In this document: piece after piece, positions 3,622-17,306 of the stretch
Layout of the letters: the number at the start of each line of letters is the position of its first letter
Position numbering within the stretch: position 1 is the stretch's first letter
Source: an uncultured Anaerotruncus sp.
Lineage (GTDB): Bacteria > Bacillota > Clostridia > Oscillospirales > CAG-272
Length of the DNA stretch: 56,966 bases
Assembly: GCA_905210995.1 (NCBI GenBank)
Contig: CAJLZE010000003.1
Location: 1-56,966 of the forward strand
Reading direction: 5' to 3'
Translations under genes and position numbers: made by a program
The notes under the pieces: generated by a model
Told to the model about the DNA's origin: nothing
Seen by the model: only the letters and a program-made list of their open reading frames with translations
The model's database searches: none

Positions 3622-6063
3622 ATGAAAAGTAAATTCACGCAAAAAGCACGCAGCACGCTCGGCAGAGCGCTTGACTGCGCGCGCGAGCTCGGGCACACAT
3701 ATATCGGATCCGAGCACCTTCTGCTCGGTCTGCTCGGAGAAGACGATTCCGCAGCGAGCCGCCTGCTCTATGCGCGCGGTGCCGATTATGACCGCGTGTT
3801 CTCTGCGGTGGCGGAAACCTCCGGAGTCGGTGCACCGAGCACAGTGCTGCCCTCTGACATGACACCGCGCACGCGCAGGATAATCGAAGTCTCGGCACAG
3901 GCGGCAGCAAAATACATGCAGAGCTTTATCGGCACCGAGCACATTCTTCTTGCCCTGTGTGAGGAACGCGACTGCGCCGCGGTGAGACTGCTTGAAGATC
4001 TCGGGCTCTCCCCCTCCGAGATACGCTCGGACATAACCTCATACCTTGAAAGCATCGCGGGCAGGGCGGCACTGAGGCAGACGGGCGACCGCATTGGCAT
4101 ACGTGACACGGCACCGACTCTTTCAAAATACGGGCGCGACCTCACTGCGGCGGCAGCAGCGGGAAGGCTCGATCCGACCGTGGGCAGAGAAGCCGAGACC
4201 GCGCGTGTGATACAGATACTCTGCCGCAGGCAGAAAAATAATCCTTGCCTTATCGGTGAACCCGGAGTCGGAAAGACCGCCGTCGTCGAAGGTCTGGCAC
4301 GCCTTATCGCCAACGGCGATGTACCCGAGCAGCTTGCGGGGCGCACGCTCATAACTCTCGACCTGCCATCAATGATCGCCGGGGCAAAATACCGCGGCGA
4401 GTTTGAGGACAGAATGAAAAGCGTCATGGAGGAGGTCGCAAAGAACGATTCCATAATACTGTTCATTGACGAGATACACACCGTGATCGGTGCGGGAGCA
4501 GCCGAGGGTGCGGTCGATGCTGCAAATATACTGAAGCCGGCTCTGGCACGCGGAGAGCTTCAGGTCATCGGTGCAACCACGGTAAGCGAATACCGCATGC
4601 ACATCGAAAAAGATCCGGCACTCGAGCGCCGCTTTCAGCCGGTGAATATCGGAGAGCCGTCCGAAGAAGATGCCATAAGTATTCTCGGCGGTCTGCGCAG
4701 CGGTTATGAGGAGCACCATGGACTCAGGATCACCGACGAGGCAATAGAAGCGGCTGTAAGGCTTTCGGCACGCTATATAAACGGCAGATTTCTCCCCGAC
4801 AAAGCGATCGACCTTATCGATGAGGCGGCGGCAGGCAAGCGGATAGAACTTTCGAATCGCCCGGGCTCGCTCAGAAGCTACGAACGACAGCTTCGCGATG
4901 TGATGCGCGAAAAGGAGCAGGCGATCTGCAATCAGGACTTCGAAGGCGCCGCAGCTCTCAGAGACAAGGAGAACGGGCTGCGCCTCCTTTGTGAAAAGGC
5001 GCTTAGGGAAAGCACAGATAACGAAAACGATGCCGTAAGCGCCGAGGACATAGCCGATATCGTTACACGCTGGACGGGGATCCCCGTTACATCGGTCACT
5101 GAGGATGAATCGCGCCGACTCTCCGAGCTTGAGGAGCGTCTTGCCCGTCATGTTGTCGGTCAGAGCGAGGCAATAAAGGTCACGTCGGCAGCGATAAGGC
5201 GCGGCAGACTGGGAATATCCGACCCGCGCCGTCCGATAGGCTCGTTCATTTTTTCGGGACCGAGCGGCGTCGGCAAAACCGAGCTCTGCCGCGCACTTGC
5301 CGAGGAGCTGTTCGGTTCGCAGAGCTTTCTCCTGCGCTTTGATATGTCCGAATACATGGAAAAGCACAGCGTCTCACGGCTGATCGGCTCTCCGCCGGGT
5401 TATATCGGATATGACGACGGCGGGCAGCTCACCGAACGCGTGCGCCGCATGCCGTACTGTGTACTTCTCTTCGACGAGATTGAAAAAGCGCACGGGGACA
5501 TTTTCAATATACTTCTTCAGATCCTTGAGGACGGACGACTGACCGATTCGCAGGGCAGGACGGTCGATTTCCGCAATACGGTAGTGATAATGACATCGAA
5601 CATCGGCGCAAGATACCGTGACAAAAACAGCATAGGCTTTGATCCGCGCGGTACCTCCGCTTCCGGAAGCGACGAAAAACAGCGCGTGACGCGCGCACTC
5701 GAGGAAACGTTCAGACCCGAGCTGCTCAACAGAATAGACGAGATCGTTGTATTCAATCGCCTCAGCCCCGATGACGTACAAAAAATATGCCGCACCATGC
5801 TCGGTGAGCTATCGGCGCGCTGTGCCGCCGGCGAACGCGGATTTTCGCTTGTATTTGACGATAGCGCCACAGACTTTCTCTGCCGGCGCGGATACGATCC
5901 CGCACTCGGCGCACGCCCGCTGAGGCGCGTGATACAGCGCAAGGTCGAAGAGCCGCTCGCCGATGCCATGCTCTCCGGCGGCGTGAAAAAGATAGTCCGC
6001 GGCAGCAGAGTCACGGTCACCGCCTCTGGCGACGGAGAAGAACTGTCCATTGACATCAAATAA
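3622..6063 (+). CDS. clpC: ATP-dependent Clp protease ATP-binding subunit ClpC
   Basis: 813 aa with a double Clp_N repeat. Walker A motifs GEPGVGKT and GPSGVGKTE, UVR-like linker (DFEGAAALRDKE), and sensor/arginine-finger regions. Confidence 0.9.
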   Translation: MKSKFTQKARSTLGRALDCARELGHTYIGSEHLLLGLLGEDDSAASRLLYARGADYDRVFSAVAETSGVGAPSTVLPSDMTPRTRRIIEVSAQAAAKYMQSFIGTEHILLALCEERDCAAVRLLEDLGLSPSEIRSDITSYLESIAGRAALRQTGDRIGIRDTAPTLSKYGRDLTAAAAAGRLDPTVGREAETARVIQILCRRQKNNPCLIGEPGVGKTAVVEGLARLIANGDVPEQLAGRTLITLDLPSMIAGAKYRGEFEDRMKSVMEEVAKNDSIILFIDEIHTVIGAGAAEGAVDAANILKPALARGELQVIGATTVSEYRMHIEKDPALERRFQPVNIGEPSEEDAISILGGLRSGYEEHHGLRITDEAIEAAVRLSARYINGRFLPDKAIDLIDEAAAGKRIELSNRPGSLRSYERQLRDVMREKEQAICNQDFEGAAALRDKENGLRLLCEKALRESTDNENDAVSAEDIADIVTRWTGIPVTSVTEDESRRLSELEERLARHVVGQSEAIKVTSAAIRRGRLGISDPRRPIGSFIFSGPSGVGKTELCRALAEELFGSQSFLLRFDMSEYMEKHSVSRLIGSPPGYIGYDDGGQLTERVRRMPYCVLLFDEIEKAHGDIFNILLQILEDGRLTDSQGRTVDFRNTVVIMTSNIGARYRDKNSIGFDPRGTSASGSDEKQRVTRALEETFRPELLNRIDEIVVFNRLSPDDVQKICRTMLGELSARCAAGERGFSLVFDDSATDFLCRRGYDPALGARPLRRVIQRKVEEPLADAMLSGGVKKIVRGSRVTVTASGDGEELSIDIK

Positions 6064-6086
6064 GTCTTTAATTTTGCAATATTATC

Positions 6087-6115
6087 TTGACTGTTATTCT
6101 TTTTTGTGGTATAAT
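6087..6115 (+). promoter_or_regulatory. sigma-A type promoter upstream of gdhA
   Basis: TTGACT (6087-6092), 17-nt spacer, TGgTATAAT extended -10 (TATAAT at 6110-6115). The gdhA RBS AAAGGAG lies downstream. Confidence 0.65.
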
Positions 6116-6131
6116 ACCTCCCGTAAAGTGA

Positions 6132-7508
<1,377 letters not shown>

Positions 7509-9732: not shown

Positions 9733-9775
9733 CGGAGGTGCCGAAAAACTCAGAATGAGTTTTTCGGCACCTCCG
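9733..9775. terminator. intrinsic terminator between dapA and the flotillin gene
   Basis: CGGAGGTGCCGAAAAACTC-loop-GAGTTTTTCGGCACCTCCG, a 19-bp stem with T-rich flanks on the minus-sense side. Confidence 0.75.
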
Positions 9776-9782
9776 TAAGGTT

Positions 9783-11219
9783 TTATTCGGCTTTTTCTGC
9801 GGGATGCTCGGATTTTTCCGCCTCCGCGGCAGGCTTTCCGAGGTATTCGGGCAGCTTCATGCCCGCCATGTCGAACAGATCGGTAAGCGGCGGGACCGAC
9901 TTATACAGCCCCGAGATGAACCCCGCGGTGCTGCTCTTTCCGTCGGCGCCGCTCTGTCCGTTGTCCCAGACTGTCACCTTGTCGATCTTGAGGTTCTTGA
10001 CGGCATCGACCTGAATGCGGGTCAGCTCCTCGAGCTTGTCGGTGACCATCAGTCTGATGGCGGCGTTTGCGTCTCCGCCCGCAGCGGCGACGACCTGCGC
10101 AAGACCCTCTGCCTGCTTTACGAGTATCTCTCTCGCACCGGCAGCCTCTGCCTGCATCTTCATGAGTATCGCGTCGGCTTCACCGCGCGCCTTGCGGCGC
10201 ATCTGCTCGGCTTCAGCCTCCGCCTTCAGCTCGGCTTCTCTCTTGGCGATCTCGGCTTTTACAAGAACGTCAGCCTCGAGCTTCGCTCTTTCAAGCTCGG
10301 CACGCGCACCTTCGGCGTCGCGCTGCGCGGCGTAGGATTCCTCCATCGCCTTTGCCGACTGAATGTTTTCGGCGGCAACGGCGCGCTTGTTCGCTTCCGC
10401 TTCTCTTTCGCGGCGTGTCGCGTCGGATTCGGCGATTTTCACCTTCGCCTCGTTCTCACCGGCTATAGCCTCGGAGTTGGCTCGGGAGACATTGATCCTC
10501 TGATCCTTTTCGGCGGCAGACGCACCGATGGCACCGTTTCTGTCAGCCTCGGCGACCGAGATCTTTGCGTCGTTTATCGCCTTTGCGGCAGCCTCTTTAC
10601 CGAGCGCGGCAATATACCCGCTCTCGTCGTCGATATCGGTCACGTTGACGTTTATCAGGCGCAGACCGATCTTTTTGAGCTCTGTCTCAACGTTGCCCGA
10701 AACCGCATCAAGGAACTTGTCGCGGTCGGTGTTGATCTCCTCGATGTCCATCGTGGCGATGACAAGACGAAGCTGACCGAAGATTATATCCTTGGCAAGC
10801 TCCTGTATCTCGGCAAGCTTGAGACCGAGAAGGCGCTCGGCTGCGTTCTGCATCACGCCGACCTCGGTAGAAATACCGACGGTGAAACGCGAGGGAACGT
10901 CAACACGGATGTTCTGGTGCGACAGCGCGTTCGTCAGATCAACCGGGATCGACAGCGGCGTCAGATCGAGATACTCATACGACTGCACGATCGGAACGAT
11001 GAACGCCGCACCGCCGTGAATGCACTTGGCAGAGCGCTGCGTGCCGTCGCGGTTGGTGCCGACCTTACCGTAAATGACCATGATCTTGTCGGAGGGGCAT
11101 TTTTTGTACCTCGACGCGAACACGACGATGAAGGCAAACAGCACGATCACGACCGCCAGAACTATCAGCGGGACCGCGGCGGAAAGTCCGCCCGCGAGCA
11201 TGGGAATGAAGTGTGTCAT
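9783..11219 (-). CDS. flotillin family (SPFH/Band-7) protein, FloT/YuaG-like
   Basis: N-terminal TM helix, SPFH core (IMVIYGK...VDVPSRFTVGI...), and a long Ala/Glu-rich coiled coil (EREAEANKRAVAAE...). GAGGAG RBS. Confidence 0.85.
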   Translation of the reverse strand: MTHFIPMLAGGLSAAVPLIVLAVVIVLFAFIVVFASRYKKCPSDKIMVIYGKVGTNRDGTQRSAKCIHGGAAFIVPIVQSYEYLDLTPLSIPVDLTNALSHQNIRVDVPSRFTVGISTEVGVMQNAAERLLGLKLAEIQELAKDIIFGQLRLVIATMDIEEINTDRDKFLDAVSGNVETELKKIGLRLINVNVTDIDDESGYIAALGKEAAAKAINDAKISVAEADRNGAIGASAAEKDQRINVSRANSEAIAGENEAKVKIAESDATRREREAEANKRAVAAENIQSAKAMEESYAAQRDAEGARAELERAKLEADVLVKAEIAKREAELKAEAEAEQMRRKARGEADAILMKMQAEAAGAREILVKQAEGLAQVVAAAGGDANAAIRLMVTDKLEELTRIQVDAVKNLKIDKVTVWDNGQSGADGKSSTAGFISGLYKSVPPLTDLFDMAGMKLPEYLGKPAAEAEKSEHPAEKAE

Positions 11220-11301
11220 TTTTTATTCTCCTCAAAAATAATTTGGATCGATGTAAATAAGCCGCGAAAGCTCCGTGGCCGCGCAGCACAATCCGTGCGC
11301 G

Positions 11302-11514
11302 TCAGTCGTCCCGCTCTTTGTCCTTGCGGCGCTTGCGCGTCAGAGTTAAGATCGCAGCGGGGACGGCGGCAGCAACGACCGCTCCTGCGGCAAACATCAC
11401 CGCACGCTCGCCCTTTTCGTCGCCCGTTTCGGGCGATGTGGCTGCGTAATTGCGGACATAGTCAAAAATATCTCCGCCGGATATGCGCCAACCGTCGTCG
11501 GTATATACGAGGTC
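11302..11514. repeat. sorting-signal module repeat, long copy (P1 3' end)
   Basis: Nearly identical over ~210 nt to 13125-13334, apart from one extra GTC codon and a few substitutions. Confidence 0.85.
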
Positions 11515-12111
11515 GGCAGTATATGTACCGTCAAAGTAGTCGGGAGGACCTTCGTATGGAGCAGACGCTTTTATTACTGCCACGGTACTTTTGAATTTCA
11601 CGCTCGCGGTTTTGCCATCAGATTTAATGTCAATGCTTTCGCCTCTCAATAATACATCAGGGCAAACGAGACGCAGCCTGTACCAATTTCCGTTCGCTCC
11701 GCGCCTTACGAGTTCAACGTCCGGTCCGCCCGGAACATGAATATCTTCCACCATACGTGCCGCAAGCTCAGGTGTCAGACATTTCTTATAATCCTCGAGT
11801 ACAAAATTACGGATATCCTCGCCGAAATACTTTTCATAGTGTTCGGTATTATTATATTCGAAATAATAGAACGTTTTCCCATTGGCATAAGGAACACCTT
11901 TTGAATCGCACTTGAATCCTACAATTCCGACTATGTTCTGACTTCCTGATACATCGTATAGAGGAACCGAAGCACGCCAAAATTGGTCATACAGATTCTT
12001 GAATGTCTTTCCGTCGAGAGGCTCGATGTCTGATTCCGCCACGGGCAGCAAAGCAAACAACATCGTCAGAATAACTATCAGTGACAATGTAAAAATGCTC
12101 TTTTTTCTCAT
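11302..12111 (-). CDS. secreted protein of unknown function with an SPETG cell-wall sorting signal (paralogue P1)
   Basis: Signal peptide MRKKSIFTLSLIVILTMLFALLPVAES. C-terminus SPETG (11422-11436) + hydrophobic AVMFAAGAVVAAAVPAAILTL + RKRRKDKERDD. Confidence 0.8.
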   Translation of the reverse strand: MRKKSIFTLSLIVILTMLFALLPVAESDIEPLDGKTFKNLYDQFWRASVPLYDVSGSQNIVGIVGFKCDSKGVPYANGKTFYYFEYNNTEHYEKYFGEDIRNFVLEDYKKCLTPELAARMVEDIHVPGGPDVELVRRGANGNWYRLRLVCPDVLLRGESIDIKSDGKTASVKFKSTVAVIKASAPYEGPPDYFDGTYTADLVYTDDGWRISGGDIFDYVRNYAATSPETGDEKGERAVMFAAGAVVAAAVPAAILTLTRKRRKDKERDD

Positions 12112-12145
12112 GGTGTTCTCTCCTTTTTGTTTGCTTTTATTTATT

Positions 12146-12265
12146 TCAGTCCTGCTCTCTGTCCTTGCGGCGCTTGCGCGCCAGTGTCACGATCGCAGCG
12201 GGAACAGCGGCGGCAACGACCGCTCCCGCGGCAAACATCACCGCACGCTCGCCCTTTTCGTCGCC
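12146..12265. repeat. sorting-signal module repeat, short copy (P2 3' end)
   Basis: About 120 nt closely similar to the 3' ends of P1/P3/P4 (TCAGTCC.GCTCT.TGTCCTTGCGGCGCTTGCGCG...CATCACCGCACGCTCGCCCTTTTCGTCGCC). Confidence 0.8.
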
Positions 12266-12985
12266 AGTCACCGGTGACGTTGCAGAATCGCCTAACGCCC
12301 ATGCAACAAAACTACACTCACCGATTTTCCATCCCGAATCAGTTTTTACAAACAAAACGCGGTAATCATTCGAAAGTTGTGTTACACCGCTCGTGCGTGT
12401 AAATATCAATGAAGCTTCCTCGCCGTTGCATCTAAAGTCACGAAAATCATGGTACGTCACAGGATTGAAACTGTCGTTCTGTGTCCCGTAGCCTTCGTAA
12501 TATTTCAGAAGTATTCCATCACTGTCATATCTGAATATCTCTATCGGTACAGCTCTTTTTTCGCGCGGGTGATGGAAGTTTGTCATTTCATCTGCAATAT
12601 TATCGACATAATATTGTTTTGCGTACTCTTTCCAAGCATCTACGGTTAAATACTTGCATTCAGGATCAAGGTCAAGATAATTATAGCTTTTTTTCCATTG
12701 ACCGTTCTTGCTATACGACTCCCCTGATGTTGAAGTACTGAAAGCACGCACATTATCTTCACGTATCGTATAACTCCCGTCCGCCCCCATATCCTTAACA
12801 ACATTATACATATGCTGAAATTCGTCAAACGGGTGTTGGATGTGCGACATACATTCACGCGCATTTTTGAATATATCCAACGCATCATCATATGTCAGTG
12901 CGACTGATTCGGCTTTTACACCAACACACACGCAAGTGAATAGAAGAACTATGCTCATTGCCGCTGCTATGATCATCTTTTTCAT
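12146..12985 (-). CDS. secreted protein of unknown function with an SPVTG cell-wall sorting signal (paralogue P2)
   Basis: ORF 12146..12991 (TTG). ATG at 12985 follows GAGG. Has a signal peptide. SPVTG at 12263-12277 + TM + RKRRKDREQD. The mature domain is AT-rich. Confidence 0.8.
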   Translation of the reverse strand: MKKMIIAAAMSIVLLFTCVCVGVKAESVALTYDDALDIFKNARECMSHIQHPFDEFQHMYNVVKDMGADGSYTIREDNVRAFSTSTSGESYSKNGQWKKSYNYLDLDPECKYLTVDAWKEYAKQYYVDNIADEMTNFHHPREKRAVPIEIFRYDSDGILLKYYEGYGTQNDSFNPVTYHDFRDFRCNGEEASLIFTRTSGVTQLSNDYRVLFVKTDSGWKIGECSFVAWALGDSATSPVTGDEKGERAVMFAAGAVVAAAVPAAIVTLARKRRKDREQD

Positions 12986-13124
12986 TTTCAAATTACCTCA
13001 CCACTACGATTCAAGATACCGAAATACTATCCAGTGACTAACTGAATCATATATTTCATTCTCTCCTTTTGTTTGTTTTTGTGTCTTATAATATTTTTGT
13101 GACTTATAATATTATATATTTAAT

Positions 13125-13334
13125 TCAGTCCCGCTCTTTGTCCTTGCGGCGCTTGCGCGTCAGAGTTAAGATCGCTGCGGGAACGACGGCGGCAACGACC
13201 GCTCCTGCGGCAAACATCACCGCACGCTCGCCCTTTTCGTCGCCCGTTTCGGGCGATGTGGCTGCGTAATTGCGGACATAGTCAAAAATATCTCCGCCGG
13301 ATATGCGCCAACCGTCGTCGGTATATACGAGGTC
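13125..13334. repeat. sorting-signal module repeat, long copy (P3 3' end)
   Basis: See 11302-11514. Confidence 0.85.
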
Positions 13335-13985
13335 AACGGTGCAATCCATTTTTATTTCTTTATCGTTTGGATACTTTATTATGATATCCGCCCTTCTCTC
13401 AAGATCAATAACCCCGACGTTTGCATTGCATTTGACCTCCGCATTTTTTCCGTCAACACGTATACTGTCCACCCTGCTCACAAATAGTATCGGCTGTATC
13501 AGGAACAGCTTATACCACTTTCCGTCGCTCTCCTGACGTGTGAGTTCGACATCCGGTCCGCCCTCAACGTGATAATCCTCGGTAAGCCGATCCGCCAATT
13601 CGGGAGTCAGACAGCTCCTCAGTTCCTCCGCAGCTTCGGCACGCACCTTACTAATATCTATAGTGCTGCTTCTGCTGTAATCGATATAGTAATAACTTTT
13701 ACCGTTTGCGTATGCAACACCATGTGAATCACATCTGAACAGCTTTACCGGATAGGGGACTTGCGATGTATTCAAATGAAACAAAGTAAAAGCACTGGGA
13801 GAATTGAAAACTTTAAGCATCAACTCTTTAAACACTGTTTCGGTCAGTTCATCAACCTTAGTTTCCGCATCAGCCGCTCCTACGGAAAGCACGGTACCGG
13901 CAGCAAGCAAGACAAAAACAAGCAAAATCGAAAGCAGTCTGAGTTTTACGGCGTGTAAACGTGTGAAAATGCGTTCTCTTTTCAT
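13125..13985 (-). CDS. secreted protein of unknown function with an SPETG cell-wall sorting signal (paralogue P3, homologous to P1)
   Basis: Signal peptide MKRERIFTRLHAVKLRLLSILLVFVLLAAGTVLSVGAADA. SPETG at 13242-13256 + TM + RKRRKDKERD. The mature part aligns with P1 (CLTPELA..., GGPDVEL, VYTDDGWRISGGDIFDYVRNY). Confidence 0.8.
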   Translation of the reverse strand: MKRERIFTRLHAVKLRLLSILLVFVLLAAGTVLSVGAADAETKVDELTETVFKELMLKVFNSPSAFTLFHLNTSQVPYPVKLFRCDSHGVAYANGKSYYYIDYSRSSTIDISKVRAEAAEELRSCLTPELADRLTEDYHVEGGPDVELTRQESDGKWYKLFLIQPILFVSRVDSIRVDGKNAEVKCNANVGVIDLERRADIIIKYPNDKEIKMDCTVDLVYTDDGWRISGGDIFDYVRNYAATSPETGDEKGERAVMFAAGAVVAAVVPAAILTLTRKRRKDKERD

Positions 13986-14005
13986 GGTGTTCTCTCCTTT
14001 TGTTT
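13930..14005. repeat. 5' module repeat (signal-peptide n-region + RBS), P3 copy
   Basis: GAAAGCAGTCTGAGTTTTACGG(C/T)GTGTAAACGTGTGAAAATGCGTTCTCTTTTCATGGTGTTCTCTCCTTTTGTTTG is shared with 15028-15104. Confidence 0.8.
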
Positions 14006-14018
14006 GCTTTTATTTATT

Positions 14019-14150
14019 TCAGTCCCGCTCTCTGTCCTTGCGGCGCTTGCGCGTCAGAGTTAAGATCGCAGCGGGGACGGCGGCAGCAACGACCGCTCCT
14101 GCGGCAAACATCACCGCACGCTCGCCCTTTTCGTCGCCCGTTTCGGGGCT
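14019..14150. repeat. sorting-signal module repeat, short copy (P4 3' end)
   Basis: About 130 nt near-identical to the P1/P3 3' ends. The upstream junction 13979-14025 also matches 12107-12150. Confidence 0.8.
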
Positions 14151-15083
14151 TTTGCCAAGGCGTTGTGCGTATATGGCAAGTCTGCGTGCAATCTCTGCCG
14201 AGTCCTCGTCACTTTCACTTATATAAGCATAATCATTTCCGTAGGAGGATTCGCCGTACTTCGCCGCAAAAGTGAGAAAGCTGTAGTAATCATACCAATA
14301 CTCGTCCGAATAGTTCCATGTTTCAAGGGTTTCGATAGAAGCATCCAGTACGTATCCGTACGAGACAAAGAGGTCCTTACGCATCATCCACATTTCCTCG
14401 TTGTCATGTTGGTATGAAATGAATTTTTCGGCTTTCGGGGTATCTGAGGCAAATGCTACCGGATTTATCACCAGTCCCGGCTCCAAAAACGTTTCCATGG
14501 CAACTCTGCCGTCATCGCTGTATATAGCATCGGCAAATATCTTCACAGCCTCATCGAGTGAAAAGCGCTTATCCCCTAAAGGACCTTCTTCCGTCCGTGA
14601 TATAATGTAGTCTCTGAATAGGCTTTCGAATTCGGCACGCGGTATGTCATATTATCTGACGTAATAATACACCAGCGGCATACCGGTCTTCAGAAATTCG
14701 GTGTAATAAAAATCAGATATTTCCTTTCCCTCGGCGGTCAGATACTCGTTTGCGTTTTTGTACTTATCGCGGGGATATAAATATTCGAGACAATAATAGT
14801 ATGCGCTGTGGCAATACACCGGAGCCCCTTTATACGACCATGTAAAGTAGCCGCCTTGCATATACGAAAGAAATTTATCCTTTCTTGAAACAAGACCCGC
14901 GTATTCAAGTTTGGCAGGGTCTCCGGTGCGTGAGGTCGCACTTCCGGTCACAGCAAATGCACTCAAAACAATGCTTACAGCAAGGATCATGAGTAAAACA
15001 GCTTCAGATATTTTCATCGCCTTATTTGAAAGCAGTCTGAGTTTTACGGTGTGTAAACGTGTGAAAATGCGTTCTCTTTTCAT
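14019..15083 (-). pseudogene. fourth SPETG-anchored paralogue (P4) interrupted by one in-frame TAA
   Basis: ORFs 14652..15128 (signal peptide, no anchor) and 14019..14546 (anchor, no signal peptide) are in the same frame (1110 nt = 370 codons). A single TAA at 14652-14654 separates them, and the sequence between them stays open. Confidence 0.75.
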
Positions 15084-15104
15084 GGTGTTCTCTCCTTTTG
15101 TTTG
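15028..15104. repeat. 5' module repeat (signal-peptide n-region + RBS), P4 copy
   Basis: See 13930-14005. Confidence 0.8.
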
Positions 15105-15202
15105 TTTTTTATCTTTACAGAACCGCATGCGGCTCTGCGAAGTGCTTACTGCTTCCGGTCGTTACGTTCCGGCGCGGGGCGTGCGCCGTGCGCTCACATT
15201 TT

Positions 15203-15946
15203 TTATTTTACGGCAGCGCGGGATATGCGCACGTTTATCTCATCGAGATATGAGTCGGCATCCGCGTCGGCGAGCACAGGCAGATCGGCCGCTGCGGTGC
15301 CGTCATGCGCCGTGAGCACTATATGACGATATTTTGTTCTGCCCTCGTACAGCGACGAACCGGCATCGGTGTCGGCGTATGCGGCGGATGCAAGGTCGGA
15401 ATAGGCGATCTCACGGAAGAGCTCATCGGCACGGTCCTCGGTGAGGCTCACGCGGCGCTCGCCTATACAGATCGCCCCAGGCTTCAGCATAAAGCCCGAA
15501 AGCGAATATACCGACGAACGTTCTCTGCCGTCGTTCCCCTTTTTGAAGAGCGCCGAGGGATCGTCGAAAAAGTATGTACCGAAAAACACGGGATCGGTGT
15601 GGTGGTCCTCGCTCGCACCGCCGTAGCGATGTTCGTTCCTATATTTTATAACGTCTGTATTAATAAATTTGTGACAAAAATCGACGCGAAACGGCTCCGA
15701 AAGTGCCTGAGCGCACTCGTCAAGCTCGGAATCCTTTATCCTCACTGCGGATATTGCGACCGCAAGCACAACGCCCGCCGCGAGTATCGGAAAACCGATG
15801 ATGCGCATAAGCCCGCGCGGCAGACCGCTCGTGCTTGCAAGGAATATGACCATGATAAAACCGACCGCAATGAGCGCCGCGGCAATGACTATCGGGTATG
15901 TTGTGTTTTTCTGTTCAAAATACTTCCGGGTGCGTTGATAATTCAT
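15203..15946 (-). CDS. membrane protein of unknown function (2 TM + cytoplasmic domain)
   Basis: 247 aa with two N-terminal hydrophobic helices (YPIVIAAALIAVGFIMVIFLA, IIGFPILAAGVVLAVAISAV). I recognise no motif. Confidence 0.6.
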   Translation of the reverse strand: MNYQRTRKYFEQKNTTYPIVIAAALIAVGFIMVIFLASTSGLPRGLMRIIGFPILAAGVVLAVAISAVRIKDSELDECAQALSEPFRVDFCHKFINTDVIKYRNEHRYGGASEDHHTDPVFFGTYFFDDPSALFKKGNDGRERSSVYSLSGFMLKPGAICIGERRVSLTEDRADELFREIAYSDLASAAYADTDAGSSLYEGRTKYRHIVLTAHDGTAAADLPVLADADADSYLDEINVRISRAAVK

Positions 15947-16036
15947 AAAATGTGCCTCGCTGCGCTGATTACCCGCTCTATTATATAATACGGATAATAT
16001 CGCTTTTTTTCTTCAACTTTTTTTATTTTTTTCGAT

Positions 16037-16639
16037 TTATTTTTTCAGAGGCTCGACAACGAGCACTCCGCCCTCGCTCACCGACACGACTCTGACATAA
16101 ACGCCTGTTCTGAGCGCGCTGTCTCCCGTCGTTATCGCGGGGAATTCGCAGAATTTCTCCTGAAGGGTGATCGTCACCTTGCCCGAGCCTTCTCCGTTAG
16201 CGGGCACCGGAATATATATCTGCGCCACCTTGCCGATGGCGTTGGATATGTCGATATTTCCCGACGACTGCAGCTTATACACGCCCCTCATGAGGAACGC
16301 GATACCGACAAGTGCCGCAACGCCCGCAGCCACGGCGATAAGGATTGCCAGCCAGTCGGGCATAGATGTCTCAAGAAGCGCGACTCCGAGCCAACCCGTT
16401 ATGCAGAGCATCGAGAGGATGCCGCGCATGGAAAACAGCGAAAGCCCGTCGTCAACGGCTGCCGCGGCGTCGATATCCGAATCGGGTATGCCGTCGCCGT
16501 CTATGTCCTCCGGCACGTCGTCTCCGCCTATGCCGATAAGCTGTATCACCGTCTGGATGATGAGCAGCGCGGTCGAGGGGATGGCAATTAGCGCAAATAT
16601 CTGCTGCGCGAGTTCAAGTCCGTTCCACCAGTTTATCAT
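16037..16639 (-). CDS. NfeD-like membrane protein (YuaF-type, C-terminal OB-fold)
   Basis: Three TM helices, an acidic loop (DDVPEDIDGDGIPDSDID), and a C-terminal GKVAQIYIPVPANGEGSGKVTITLQEKFCEFPAITT...VRVVSVSEGGVLVVEPL typical of the NfeD OB domain. Confidence 0.7.
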   Translation of the reverse strand: MINWWNGLELAQQIFALIAIPSTALLIIQTVIQLIGIGGDDVPEDIDGDGIPDSDIDAAAAVDDGLSLFSMRGILSMLCITGWLGVALLETSMPDWLAILIAVAAGVAALVGIAFLMRGVYKLQSSGNIDISNAIGKVAQIYIPVPANGEGSGKVTITLQEKFCEFPAITTGDSALRTGVYVRVVSVSEGGVLVVEPLKK

Positions 16640-16721
16640 AATGAAAATGCCTTGCCTTTCTCATCCGGCAGCGGCGCACAGCCCGCCGGACATAAAATTC
16701 GATGATCGTGCGGCTCTGCCT

Positions 16722-17306
16722 TCATGCCTGCATGAGGCGGTCCACCATTGCGTCGGAGCCGCTCTTGATGATCGACGCATAGTAGGCGATGACTATGATC
16801 TCAAGCGCAGTGTTGAGCCTTCTGCGCGCACCGCTTATCTTTTCTTCATAGTCGGAGGTCACGCGCTCTATGCACTCCTTCAGCGTTTGCTCGTCGGTCT
16901 CGCCGTCGGCGTTCATAAGCTCGTCGAGTATGCGGCAGATGTAGTCGTAAAGCAGCGAATCGCGGATGATATCGTCCGAACGGTCGTAAACGCGCCCGTT
17001 GATATATGAGATAAGAAAAGCGATCTTGTCGAGCTGCATGCACGACCGCAGCATATTGATAATAAGTATATGCGCCAGTTGATCTATATCGTACTTTTTC
17101 AGCTTTGCGTTCGCCACCCATCCGCGCTTTGTCCAGTTCTGAAGGGTCGAGCCGTCAATGCCCGATATCTCCCTGATCTGCGACAGCATTATGCCGTCCT
17201 GAATGTAGAATATTTTTTTGAGGAACTCCATTCCCGTGACGTTTCCCATGGTGTCCCGTCTCAGTACCGTGCCGGGAATATACACGTCGTTGATCTGAAG
17301 GTTCAT
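16722..17306 (-). CDS. DUF1836-like protein (putative HTH)
   Basis: 194 aa. The segment MLSQIREISGIDGSTLQNWTKRGWVANAKLKKYDIDQLAHILIINMLR matches my memory of the DUF1836 family signature. Confidence 0.5.
   Translation of the reverse strand: MNLQINDVYIPGTVLRRDTMGNVTGMEFLKKIFYIQDGIMLSQIREISGIDGSTLQNWTKRGWVANAKLKKYDIDQLAHILIINMLRSCMQLDKIAFLISYINGRVYDRSDDIIRDSLLYDYICRILDELMNADGETDEQTLKECIERVTSDYEEKISGARRRLNTALEIIVIAYYASIIKSGSDAMVDRLMQA

Follow-up and report, generated by a model that had tools for sequence, protein, structure and literature searches.

Why do four adjacent genes end in nearly the same DNA although the bodies of the encoded proteins differ widely? This question is raised by an array of four co-oriented minus-strand genes, designated P1 to P4, on contig CAJLZE010000003.1 from an uncultured Anaerotruncus species, a member of the Clostridia from the human gut. 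The array occupies positions 11302–15083 of the 56,966-nucleotide (nt) stretch analyzed here, referred to as the window, to which all coordinates apply unless a contig is named, and lies between a flotillin gene and a gene for a 247-residue protein (Table 1). The explanation that we favor, with a probability of about 0.72, is that the array belongs to a strain-variable island of recombining modular wall-protein genes, which would be the orphan cognate partners of lost wall-lytic enzymes. According to this explanation, each gene would be assembled from an interchangeable 5′ module, comprising the ribosome-binding site (RBS) and the basic n-region of a signal peptide, an AT-rich body, and a GC-rich 3′ module, comprising the sorting signal together with the spacer and RBS of the next gene. 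The bodies would be divergent, NTF2-like in P1, P2, and P3 and of an unrelated helical family in P4. Homologous recombination and gene conversion between neighbors would keep the modules near-identical, and the modules would double as the breakpoints of deletions, replacements, and re-orderings. P1–P4 themselves would be cognate partners, most likely immunity or inhibitor proteins, of secreted lectin-peptidase enzymes that attack the cell wall. In the window strain, the enzyme genes would be gone, one of them left as a 17-codon relic, and P4 of the orphan array would already have decayed.

Shared DNA modules surround divergent gene bodies

The sequence-only reading of this stretch had claimed that the last ~120–130 nt of all four genes are near-identical, with an extension to ~210 nt in P1 and P3, that the RBS/intergenic junctions and the 5′ ends of P3 and P4 are likewise shared, and that the middles are richer in AT. 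The alignments bear out each of these claims. Pairwise BLASTN gave 91–99% identity over 120–137 nt for the gene 3′ ends in all six of the six possible pairs, the module being ~126 nt long, and a 26-nt core of it occurs four times in the window vs. zero copies expected from shuffled sequences. P1 and P3 share an extended tail of 207 nt at 98% identity (11308–11514 vs. 13128–13334). The junctions leading from a tail to the next start, P2 to P1 and P4 to P3, are 96–100% identical over ~76 nt, and the 5′ ends of P3 and P4 are 97.6% identical over 82 nt. In contig L017 (3480–3548, corresponding to 15017–15083 of the window), the 5′ module ahead of P4 differs by 1 nt and, as a result, forms an upstream open reading frame (ORF) of its own with 22 codons, whose TGA overlaps P4's own ATG (ATGA); the window has an in-frame N-terminal extension instead.

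Could the termini be identical by purifying selection alone, or because whole genes were duplicated recently and their middles then diverged fast, with no conversion involved? Sorting signals are constrained, and the residues T-G-D are invariant across both body families, i.e., the P1/P3 family and the P4 family, as selection would have it. However, a codon-aware alignment of the last 65 aligned codons of P1 and P3 showed that 60 of the 63 codons for the same residue are identical, whereas the gene bodies, with amino-acid identities of 15–60%, use the same codon at only ~45% of conserved residues, which is near-random. The step in identity is therefore sharp and includes synonymous sites; when ends and middles are properly aligned, a comparison that the earlier reading had set as a test, the tails stand far above the bodies. 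The same 96–100% identity extends to the non-coding spacers, P4 has both modules although its body is unrelated, and clustered strain differences in the tails, described below, copy the states of other paralogues. Selection or duplication without conversion is thus exceedingly improbable.

Duplication of a two-gene unit had also been suggested from stop-to-stop offsets of 1823 and 1873 nt. These offsets are correct, but the similarity is confined to the modules and to the homology between P1 and P3, and the duplicated unit is rejected because P2 and P4 are unrelated.

Tails and bodies differ in composition as well. The tails have a GC content of 0.65–0.67 and a third-position GC content (GC3) of 0.72–0.73, similar to host genes (GC3 0.62–0.73), vs. 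0.41–0.45 and 0.40–0.47, respectively, for the bodies. The same split into GC-rich tail and AT-rich body is present in relatives from four other taxa. One of the two tails of a gene pair from a sister taxon (contig L015, 8001–8783) has a GC3 of 0.43 vs. 0.60–0.76 elsewhere, and this low-GC3 unconverted tail hints that the high tail GC3 might be a product of GC-biased conversion.

Gene conversion homogenizes the tails

The flanks of the array in contig L001 are 99.9% identical to those of the window. Nevertheless, the 127-nt tail of P2 (12128–12254) differs at 11 places (10 substitutions and one indel), and the tail of P1 has three differences within 31 nt, vs. ~18 further events in the remaining ~8.4 kb when a 16-nt indel is counted as one. 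Nearly all of the tail changes are to the state found in another paralogue. The 16-nt indel is a segment missing from L001; it lies at 11260–11275, flanked by the stop of P1 and the start of the flotillin gene.

Across taxa, tails and bodies follow different histories. Among paralogues of one taxon, the tails are 88–98% identical vs. 50–62% between taxa, and the bodies behave in the opposite way. For example, the body of P3 shows 63% identity to P0008 from the sister taxon and 46% to P1, whereas its tail shows 95% identity to the P1 tail and 62% to that of P0008. Identity matrices accordingly group the tails by taxon and the bodies by paralogue. Homogenized tails were also found in more remote carriers: adjacent P3-like and P4-like genes in a metagenome-assembled genome (MAG) of a distant uncultured Ruminococcus (L008) end in one species-specific tail (83% identity over 107 nt), and paralogue tails are identical at 100% over 97 nt in L009 and at 86% over 232 nt in L007. 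Recombination has left mosaics within bodies, too: P0017 equals P0025 over residues 1–120 and is 97–100% identical to P0008 over residues 121–240.

Because identity extends to synonymous sites, the tracts are polymorphic among strains, and the tails group by taxon, we conclude that the modules are homogenized by conversion. The data support that homologous recombination and gene conversion between neighboring genes hold the modules near-identical. Concerted evolution of the termini, which had been proposed from the letters of the window, can now be followed in the L001 tracts and in the grouping of tails by taxon against bodies by paralogue.

At least eleven architectures occupy one chromosomal slot

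We compared the slot between the gene for the 247-residue protein and the flotillin gene in many short-read metagenome assemblies whose flanks are 97–99.97% identical to the window. At least 11 gene orders or contents occur in this same chromosomal slot, with the breakpoints inside the shared modules. The window arrangement, P4-P3-P2-P1, recurs in L002 and seven similar contigs with an intact P4, and in L003 with the same stop codon in P4 as the window. The arrangement P3-P2-P1 is found in 14 contigs (L001, L004, and others) and involves a 1098-nt deletion ending inside the 82-nt 5′ repeat. L013 and L014, produced by two assemblers (SPAdes and MEGAHIT), have P3-P4, with both tails of the 'IVTLARKRRKDREQD' type. 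Six arrangements include peptidase genes, abbreviated here as M23 and C39 and described in the next section: M23-P4-C39-P2-P3 (L016, L018), P4-C39-P2-P3 (L017), P4-C39-P2-P3-P1 (L022), P4-C39t2-P1, in which t2 denotes type 2 (L023), C39-P2-P3-P1 (L024), and C39′-P1′-P4′ on the partial contig L021. P4 only (L010) and P3 only (L019) were each seen in a single contig and may be artefacts of repeat collapse.

Tail variants move between bodies; in L013, for instance, P3 and P4 both carry a P2-type tail. The position adjoining the flotillin gene, marked by a tail ending in '..DD', is taken by P1, P3, or P4, depending on the strain. Use of the termini as homology arms for domain exchange had been advanced together with its own refutation test, a comparison of strains for recombinant arrangements; such arrangements were found, and their breakpoints lie in the modules.

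Such structural variation might by itself arise as an artefact when metagenomes are assembled across the repeated modules. Repeats of 82–207 nt exceed many assembly k-mers, L010 and L019 are singletons, and two contigs from uncultured Anaerotruncus MAGs of the sister taxon (L005 and L006) end at or beside family genes. Against an artefact, the main architectures recur across independent samples and assemblers (14 and 9 contigs for the first two, and P3-P4 by both SPAdes and MEGAHIT), the final MEGAHIT k of 141 is longer than the 82-nt repeat, and unique sequence, i.e., the M23 and C39 genes, a gene relic, and the conversion tracts, cannot come from mis-joins. An assembly artefact therefore appears highly improbable as the source of the variation. 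The repeated modules probably do break short-read assemblies, and for this reason the arrays are likely under-represented in MAGs. A scan of genome contigs did not return the species of the window.

Many architectures among strains with 99.9%-identical flanks, and breakpoints always in shared modules, could also point to programmed high-frequency antigenic or phase variation, in which cassettes would be exchanged inside one clonal population, in the manner of pilE/pilS, vlsE, or shufflons. However, every copy is a complete ORF with a start codon and an RBS of its own, and the arrangement appears fixed within each assembly. Silent cassettes sharing the modules, which the sequence-only reading had envisaged, did not emerge. 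The four window copies are all complete genes rather than silent or promoterless ones, and no silent or extra tail copy was found in the window with the 26-nt core, or among 5.8 billion or 1.84 billion database sequences (one of the searches being exhaustive), in which the tails occur only on the P1–P4 families. A scan of metagenome contigs with the 26-nt core returned three contigs. The repeat search of the window found no inverted repeats flanking the array, and no recombinase is among the called genes and Pfam hits of the neighborhood, where no search was aimed specifically at recombinases. A programmed switch is disfavored because silent copies, flanking inverted repeats, and a recombinase were not seen, and we consider it very unlikely. 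The shuffling is rather evolutionary homologous recombination between strains.

Lectin-peptidase genes accompany the family in other strains

In other strains, the same slot contains genes for large secreted proteins with a C-terminal Peptidase_M23 (966 residues) or Peptidase_C39_2 domain (830–835 residues). The M23 and C39_2 enzyme genes bear the P3/P4-type 5′ module and are without the sorting tail. According to Pfam, the enzymes are composed of a signal-peptide-like N-terminus, RicinB lectin repeats scoring below threshold, and the peptidase domain, and no dedicated secretion or delivery domain was detected by Pfam (type V, VI, or VII secretion systems (T5SS, T6SS, T7SS), LXG, or Rhs). Peptidase_C39_2 and M23 are known as catalytic domains of Gram-positive phage lysins (PMC8223927).

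The enzyme genes are closely linked to particular genes of the array. C39 types 1 and 2 from related strains are 99–100% identical to about residue 670 and 33–40% identical thereafter; type 1 is followed by P2 with an 18-nt spacing in six contigs, and type 2 by a P1-type gene with a 21-nt spacing at two loci. The stop of the M23 gene overlaps the start of P4. A P4 homologue of 41% identity has its start overlapped by a 946-residue RicinB+M23 gene in another species and genomic context (L026–L029), and a further P4 homologue, in L030, has an M23 gene two genes upstream. A C39_2 gene followed by an NTF2-like gene within 14–21 nt was found in four lineages. In the sister lineage of Anaerotruncus MAGs (L015), NTF2-like family genes come after a C39_2-like gene, as they do in L009, a MAG of an uncultured Ruminococcus, where a 334-residue C39-like protein (5948–6952), whose C-terminal His region aligns, is encoded upstream of two family genes. 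Clean cross-species orthology of the genes downstream of C39 was considered and set aside, as identities of 37–42% are too low to decide.

The window retains a trace of such a pair. The relic between P3 and P2 (Table 1) is the scar of a deleted 835-residue Peptidase_C39_2 gene of type 1, directly upstream of its partner P2. Moreover, P4 carries an in-frame TAA at 14652–14654 (minus-strand codon 144), a position at which AAA (Lys) stands in L002, L013, and L022, with the 354-residue protein intact. P4 is therefore a pseudogene in the window strain, and an identical stop is found in L003.

Alternatively, diversifying selection could be acting on P1–P4 as ordinary adhesins of the cell surface or as proteins that bind the host or glycans; the neighboring peptidase genes would then be there by chance or encode autolysins working alongside them. 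This alternative would suit the frequent occurrence of adhesins among sortase substrates, the divergence and AT-richness of the bodies, the range of ligands bound by NTF2-like folds, and the lack of an enzyme paired with P3. It is difficult to reconcile with the strict co-variation between enzyme C-terminal variants and the downstream gene, the overlapping or tightly spaced starts of enzyme and partner, the M23-P4 pair kept in another species and genomic context, and the loss of an enzyme gene beside a kept partner, as recorded by the C39 relic next to P2. We regard the adhesin alternative as unlikely, although not negligible.

Sorting signals suggest anchoring to the cell wall

The C-termini of all four proteins follow the pattern ATSP[E/V]TGDEKGERAVMF-AAGAVVAAAVPAAI[L/V]TL[T/A]-RKRRKD, in which the hydrophobic span FAAGAVVAAAVPAAILTLT precedes RKRRKD. 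The motif SPETG (P1, P3, and P4) or SPVTG (P2) is located 43–44 residues from the C-terminus, which fits the criterion of (S/P)PxTG at 17–45 residues from the C-terminus (PMC4155245). All four N-termini are basic and then hydrophobic, and the signal peptide was judged by inspection. Since experiments have established (S/P)PxTG as the motif of Clostridioides difficile sortase B (SrtB) (PMC4155245), the motif architecture agrees with the assignment to a C. difficile-type sortase B signal made in the earlier reading. In more remote family members, SPxTG is replaced by NAETG or AVCTG, which reduces the conserved core to x-x-x-T-G-D. Because each protein ends in a (S/P)PxTG-type signal, the four are probably Sec-exported and anchored to the wall by a sortase. 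They resemble the C. difficile SrtB substrates (PMC4155245) in having SPETG/SPVTG ~43 residues from the end, a hydrophobic span, an RKRRK tail, and an N-terminal signal peptide. Unlike those substrates, they belong to a different organism, their sortase is deduced from the motif, and the distant members depart from it with NAETG/AVCTG.

Protein families and predicted folds

No Pfam or NCBIfam family matched any of P1–P4 above threshold. A weak IseA match on P2 was discarded because it is confined to the signal peptide. The P1/P3 family is very small, with 24 clusters among 5.8 billion sequences, and the P4 family equally so, with 21 matches among 1.84 billion representatives; the closest named carriers are uncultured Anaerotruncus and Ruminococcus MAGs. 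A protein search with the 46-residue tail alone returned only three fragments, from four word-index candidates. P2 and P4 had both been described as unrelated by eye. This is true of P4, the body of which is unrelated to the P1/P3 family, but not of P2, whose body shows remote homology to that family by hhalign (probability 90%, E 2e-6).

P1 matches SnoaL_4 near the threshold, with 23.2 bits vs. a cutoff of 24. The AlphaFold2 model of P3 has a pLDDT of 76.5, and its top Foldseek matches in the PDB are all NTF2/SnoaL/VirB8-like, at E ~3e-3 and with low TM-scores. These weak structural matches agree with the near-threshold SnoaL_4 match, and the bodies of P1, P2, and P3 are candidate members of the NTF2-like (SnoaL-like) superfamily. 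The model of P4 is helical, and its fold search gave no match in the PDB.

P0007 (466 residues, sister taxon; also L006, 482–1891) is a fusion of two family members, in which the first sorting signal has shrunk to 'SPGTGETGE' and runs directly into the second body. It probably arose by a deletion reaching from a tail to the 5′ end of the next gene.

Gene calls and surroundings of the array

The gene calls and modules are listed in Table 1. P1 was assigned from the ORF call, the sub-threshold SnoaL_4 match, and the P1/P3 family alignment. The start of P2 is likely the ATG at 12985, which has GGTGAGG ahead of it, and 279 residues are also called in other assemblies.

Table 1. Features of the P1–P4 locus, in coordinates of the 56,966-nt window.
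Feature	Coordinates	Strand	Description
Band_7/flotillin-like gene	9783–11219	−	Pfam PF01145, E 3.6e-25; downstream border of the variable slot
P1	11302–12111	−	269 residues; secreted; candidate NTF2-like body; SPETG sorting-signal tail; last gene of the array
3′ module of P1	11302–11433	−	ATSPETGDEKGERAVMF..RKRRKD (sorting motif, then hydrophobic span and basic tail); extended version with P3 to 11514
Spacer-A/RBS junction, P2 tail to P1 start	12112–12145	−	96–100% identity to 13986–14018
P2	12146–12985	−	279 residues; secreted; remote homologue of P1/P3; SPVTG tail
3′ module of P2	12146–12268	−	Most divergent copy in the window (91%); of P4/P3 type by conversion in L001
C39 relic	13004–13087	−	Remnant of the RBS module (13059–13087) and last 17 codons with stop (EIYDSVSHWIVFRYLES and stop, 13004–13057)
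P3	13125–13985	−	286 residues; secreted; candidate NTF2-like body; SPETG tail; bears the 5′ module
3′ module of P3	13125–13253	−	Extended version in common with P1, to 13334
5′ module of P3	13930–14011	−	RBS and MKRERIFTRLHAVKLRLLS; 97.6% identity to 15028–15109
Spacer-A/RBS junction, P4 tail to P3 start	13986–14018	−	Counterpart of 12112–12145
P4	14019–15083	−	354 codons; unrelated helical family; SPETG tail; pseudogene in the window
3′ module of P4	14019–14147	−	99% identity to that of P1
5′ module of P4	15028–15109	−	In-frame fusion ahead of P4's own start (MKISEAV..)
247-residue membrane-protein gene	15203–15946	−	Conserved; upstream border of the variable slot

The variable island apparently lies inside a flotillin operon, with the upstream genes at 15203–17306 and the Band_7 gene downstream. 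The genes upstream of the island encode a DUF1836 protein, a 200-residue membrane protein, and the 247-residue membrane protein; the 200-residue protein has an NfeD-like C-terminal end by eye and is without a Pfam match. Terminator prediction found no terminator in the array spacers or between the flotillin-operon genes around the island. c-di-GMP riboswitches occur upstream of C. difficile sortase substrates; Rfam detected no element near the array, including no c-di-GMP riboswitch. A perfect 20-bp hairpin at 9733–9775, terminator-like on the minus strand, separates the convergent flotillin and dapA-like genes. Its 3-nt loop (9753–9755) is the reverse complement in L001 and L002, a hairpin-loop flip polymorphism.

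Discussion

What could be the function of P1–P4? Because the locus matches the pattern of polymorphic effector-immunity loci, we propose that P1–P4 may be wall-anchored self-protection partners of secreted bacteriolysins and the window a partly decaying orphan array, a proposal that we hold tentatively and give somewhat less than an even chance. In a more specific form, which is possible but which we would rather doubt than believe, they would be covalently wall-anchored immunity proteins shielding the producer's own peptidoglycan from Sec-secreted, lectin-targeted M23/C39_2 bacteriolysins, and the window strain would be an immunity-only 'cheater'. The locus could then be regarded, with equal reserve, as a Gram-positive counterpart, independent of secretion systems, of the polymorphic toxin-immunity islands, in which the shared export and anchor modules would be the recombination substrate for gain, loss, and accumulation of orphan immunity genes. 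Immunity proteins of polymorphic toxin systems include NTF2-like domains (PMC3924330).

Several observations weigh against the favored explanation or one of its parts. The case for an immunity role is circumstantial, and P3 could not be matched with an enzyme. Export of the enzymes relies on Sec signals and not on a dedicated toxin secretion system, and the C39-like protein of L009 is without the catalytic-Cys segment in the alignment and is possibly inactive or truncated. The gene pair of L015 shows no tail homogenization. No ORF with a TLxTC motif, as expected of a sortase, is present in the 57-kb window, and no NCBIfam or Pfam anchor model for sorting signals matched at E ≤ 1, although HMMER filters often lose such short models. 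The strain comparisons are based on short-read assemblies, in which repeats of 82–207 nt can cause mis-joins, and the single-gene architectures, each known from one contig (L010 and L019), could have arisen by collapse during assembly. In known M23 bacteriolysin systems, immunity is conferred by cell-wall modification and not by protein inhibitors.

Conserved ends that recombine around divergent bodies have a precedent in the bab/sab (Hop) genes of Helicobacter pylori, in which near-identical 5′ and 3′ ends enclose divergent middles and inter-locus conversion changes which body sits where. The H. pylori genes, however, encode Gram-negative beta-barrels at dispersed loci, whereas the genes described here are arranged in tandem, carry Gram-positive sorting signals, and are linked to peptidase genes. 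Closer in arrangement are streptococcal emm/mrp/enn, the Alp genes of group B streptococci (GBS), Listeria inlGHE/inlC2DE, and Staphylococcus aureus lpl, which are tandem paralogues with shared export and anchor ends that form mosaics and vary in copy number by homologous recombination. Unlike these, the present array combines two unrelated, uncharacterized body families, uses SPxTG rather than LPxTG, and pairs its genes with enzyme genes.

The enzyme genes recall the polymorphic toxin/immunity loci, such as contact-dependent inhibition (CDI), Rhs, LXG/T7SS TelC-TipC, and T6SS Tae-Tai, in their constant N-terminal region and sharply bounded variable C-terminal enzyme domain, in the small downstream gene that co-varies with this domain, and in the orphan partners and hypervariability of the locus. 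In contrast to those loci, the enzymes here have ordinary Sec signals and lectin-like repeats, and toxicity and immunity are putative. Class III bacteriocins such as lysostaphin, zoocin A, and enterolysin A are secreted M23 enzymes with a targeting domain and an adjoining self-protection gene; the immunity genes lif and zif encode FemABX-like cell-wall-modifying enzymes. The M23 neighbor here is instead a putatively wall-anchored helical protein with no fold match in the PDB. To our knowledge, no system with covalently wall-anchored immunity proteins has been described.

Concerted evolution of export and anchor ends in surface-protein families is already known. Here it is seen at work in an abundant uncultured lineage of gut commensals, whose strains show at least 11 architectures despite differing elsewhere by <0.1–3%. 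If P1–P4 are indeed partner or immunity proteins, two new families, one NTF2-like and one helical, would be wall-anchored inhibitors of lysin-type peptidases, and a Sec- and sortase-based route would be added to interbacterial antagonism and immunity in gut Firmicutes. The same reading, if true, would account for a class of islands that vary among strains and disrupt metagenome assembly, and it would provide a tractable enzyme-partner test system with natural specificity variants.

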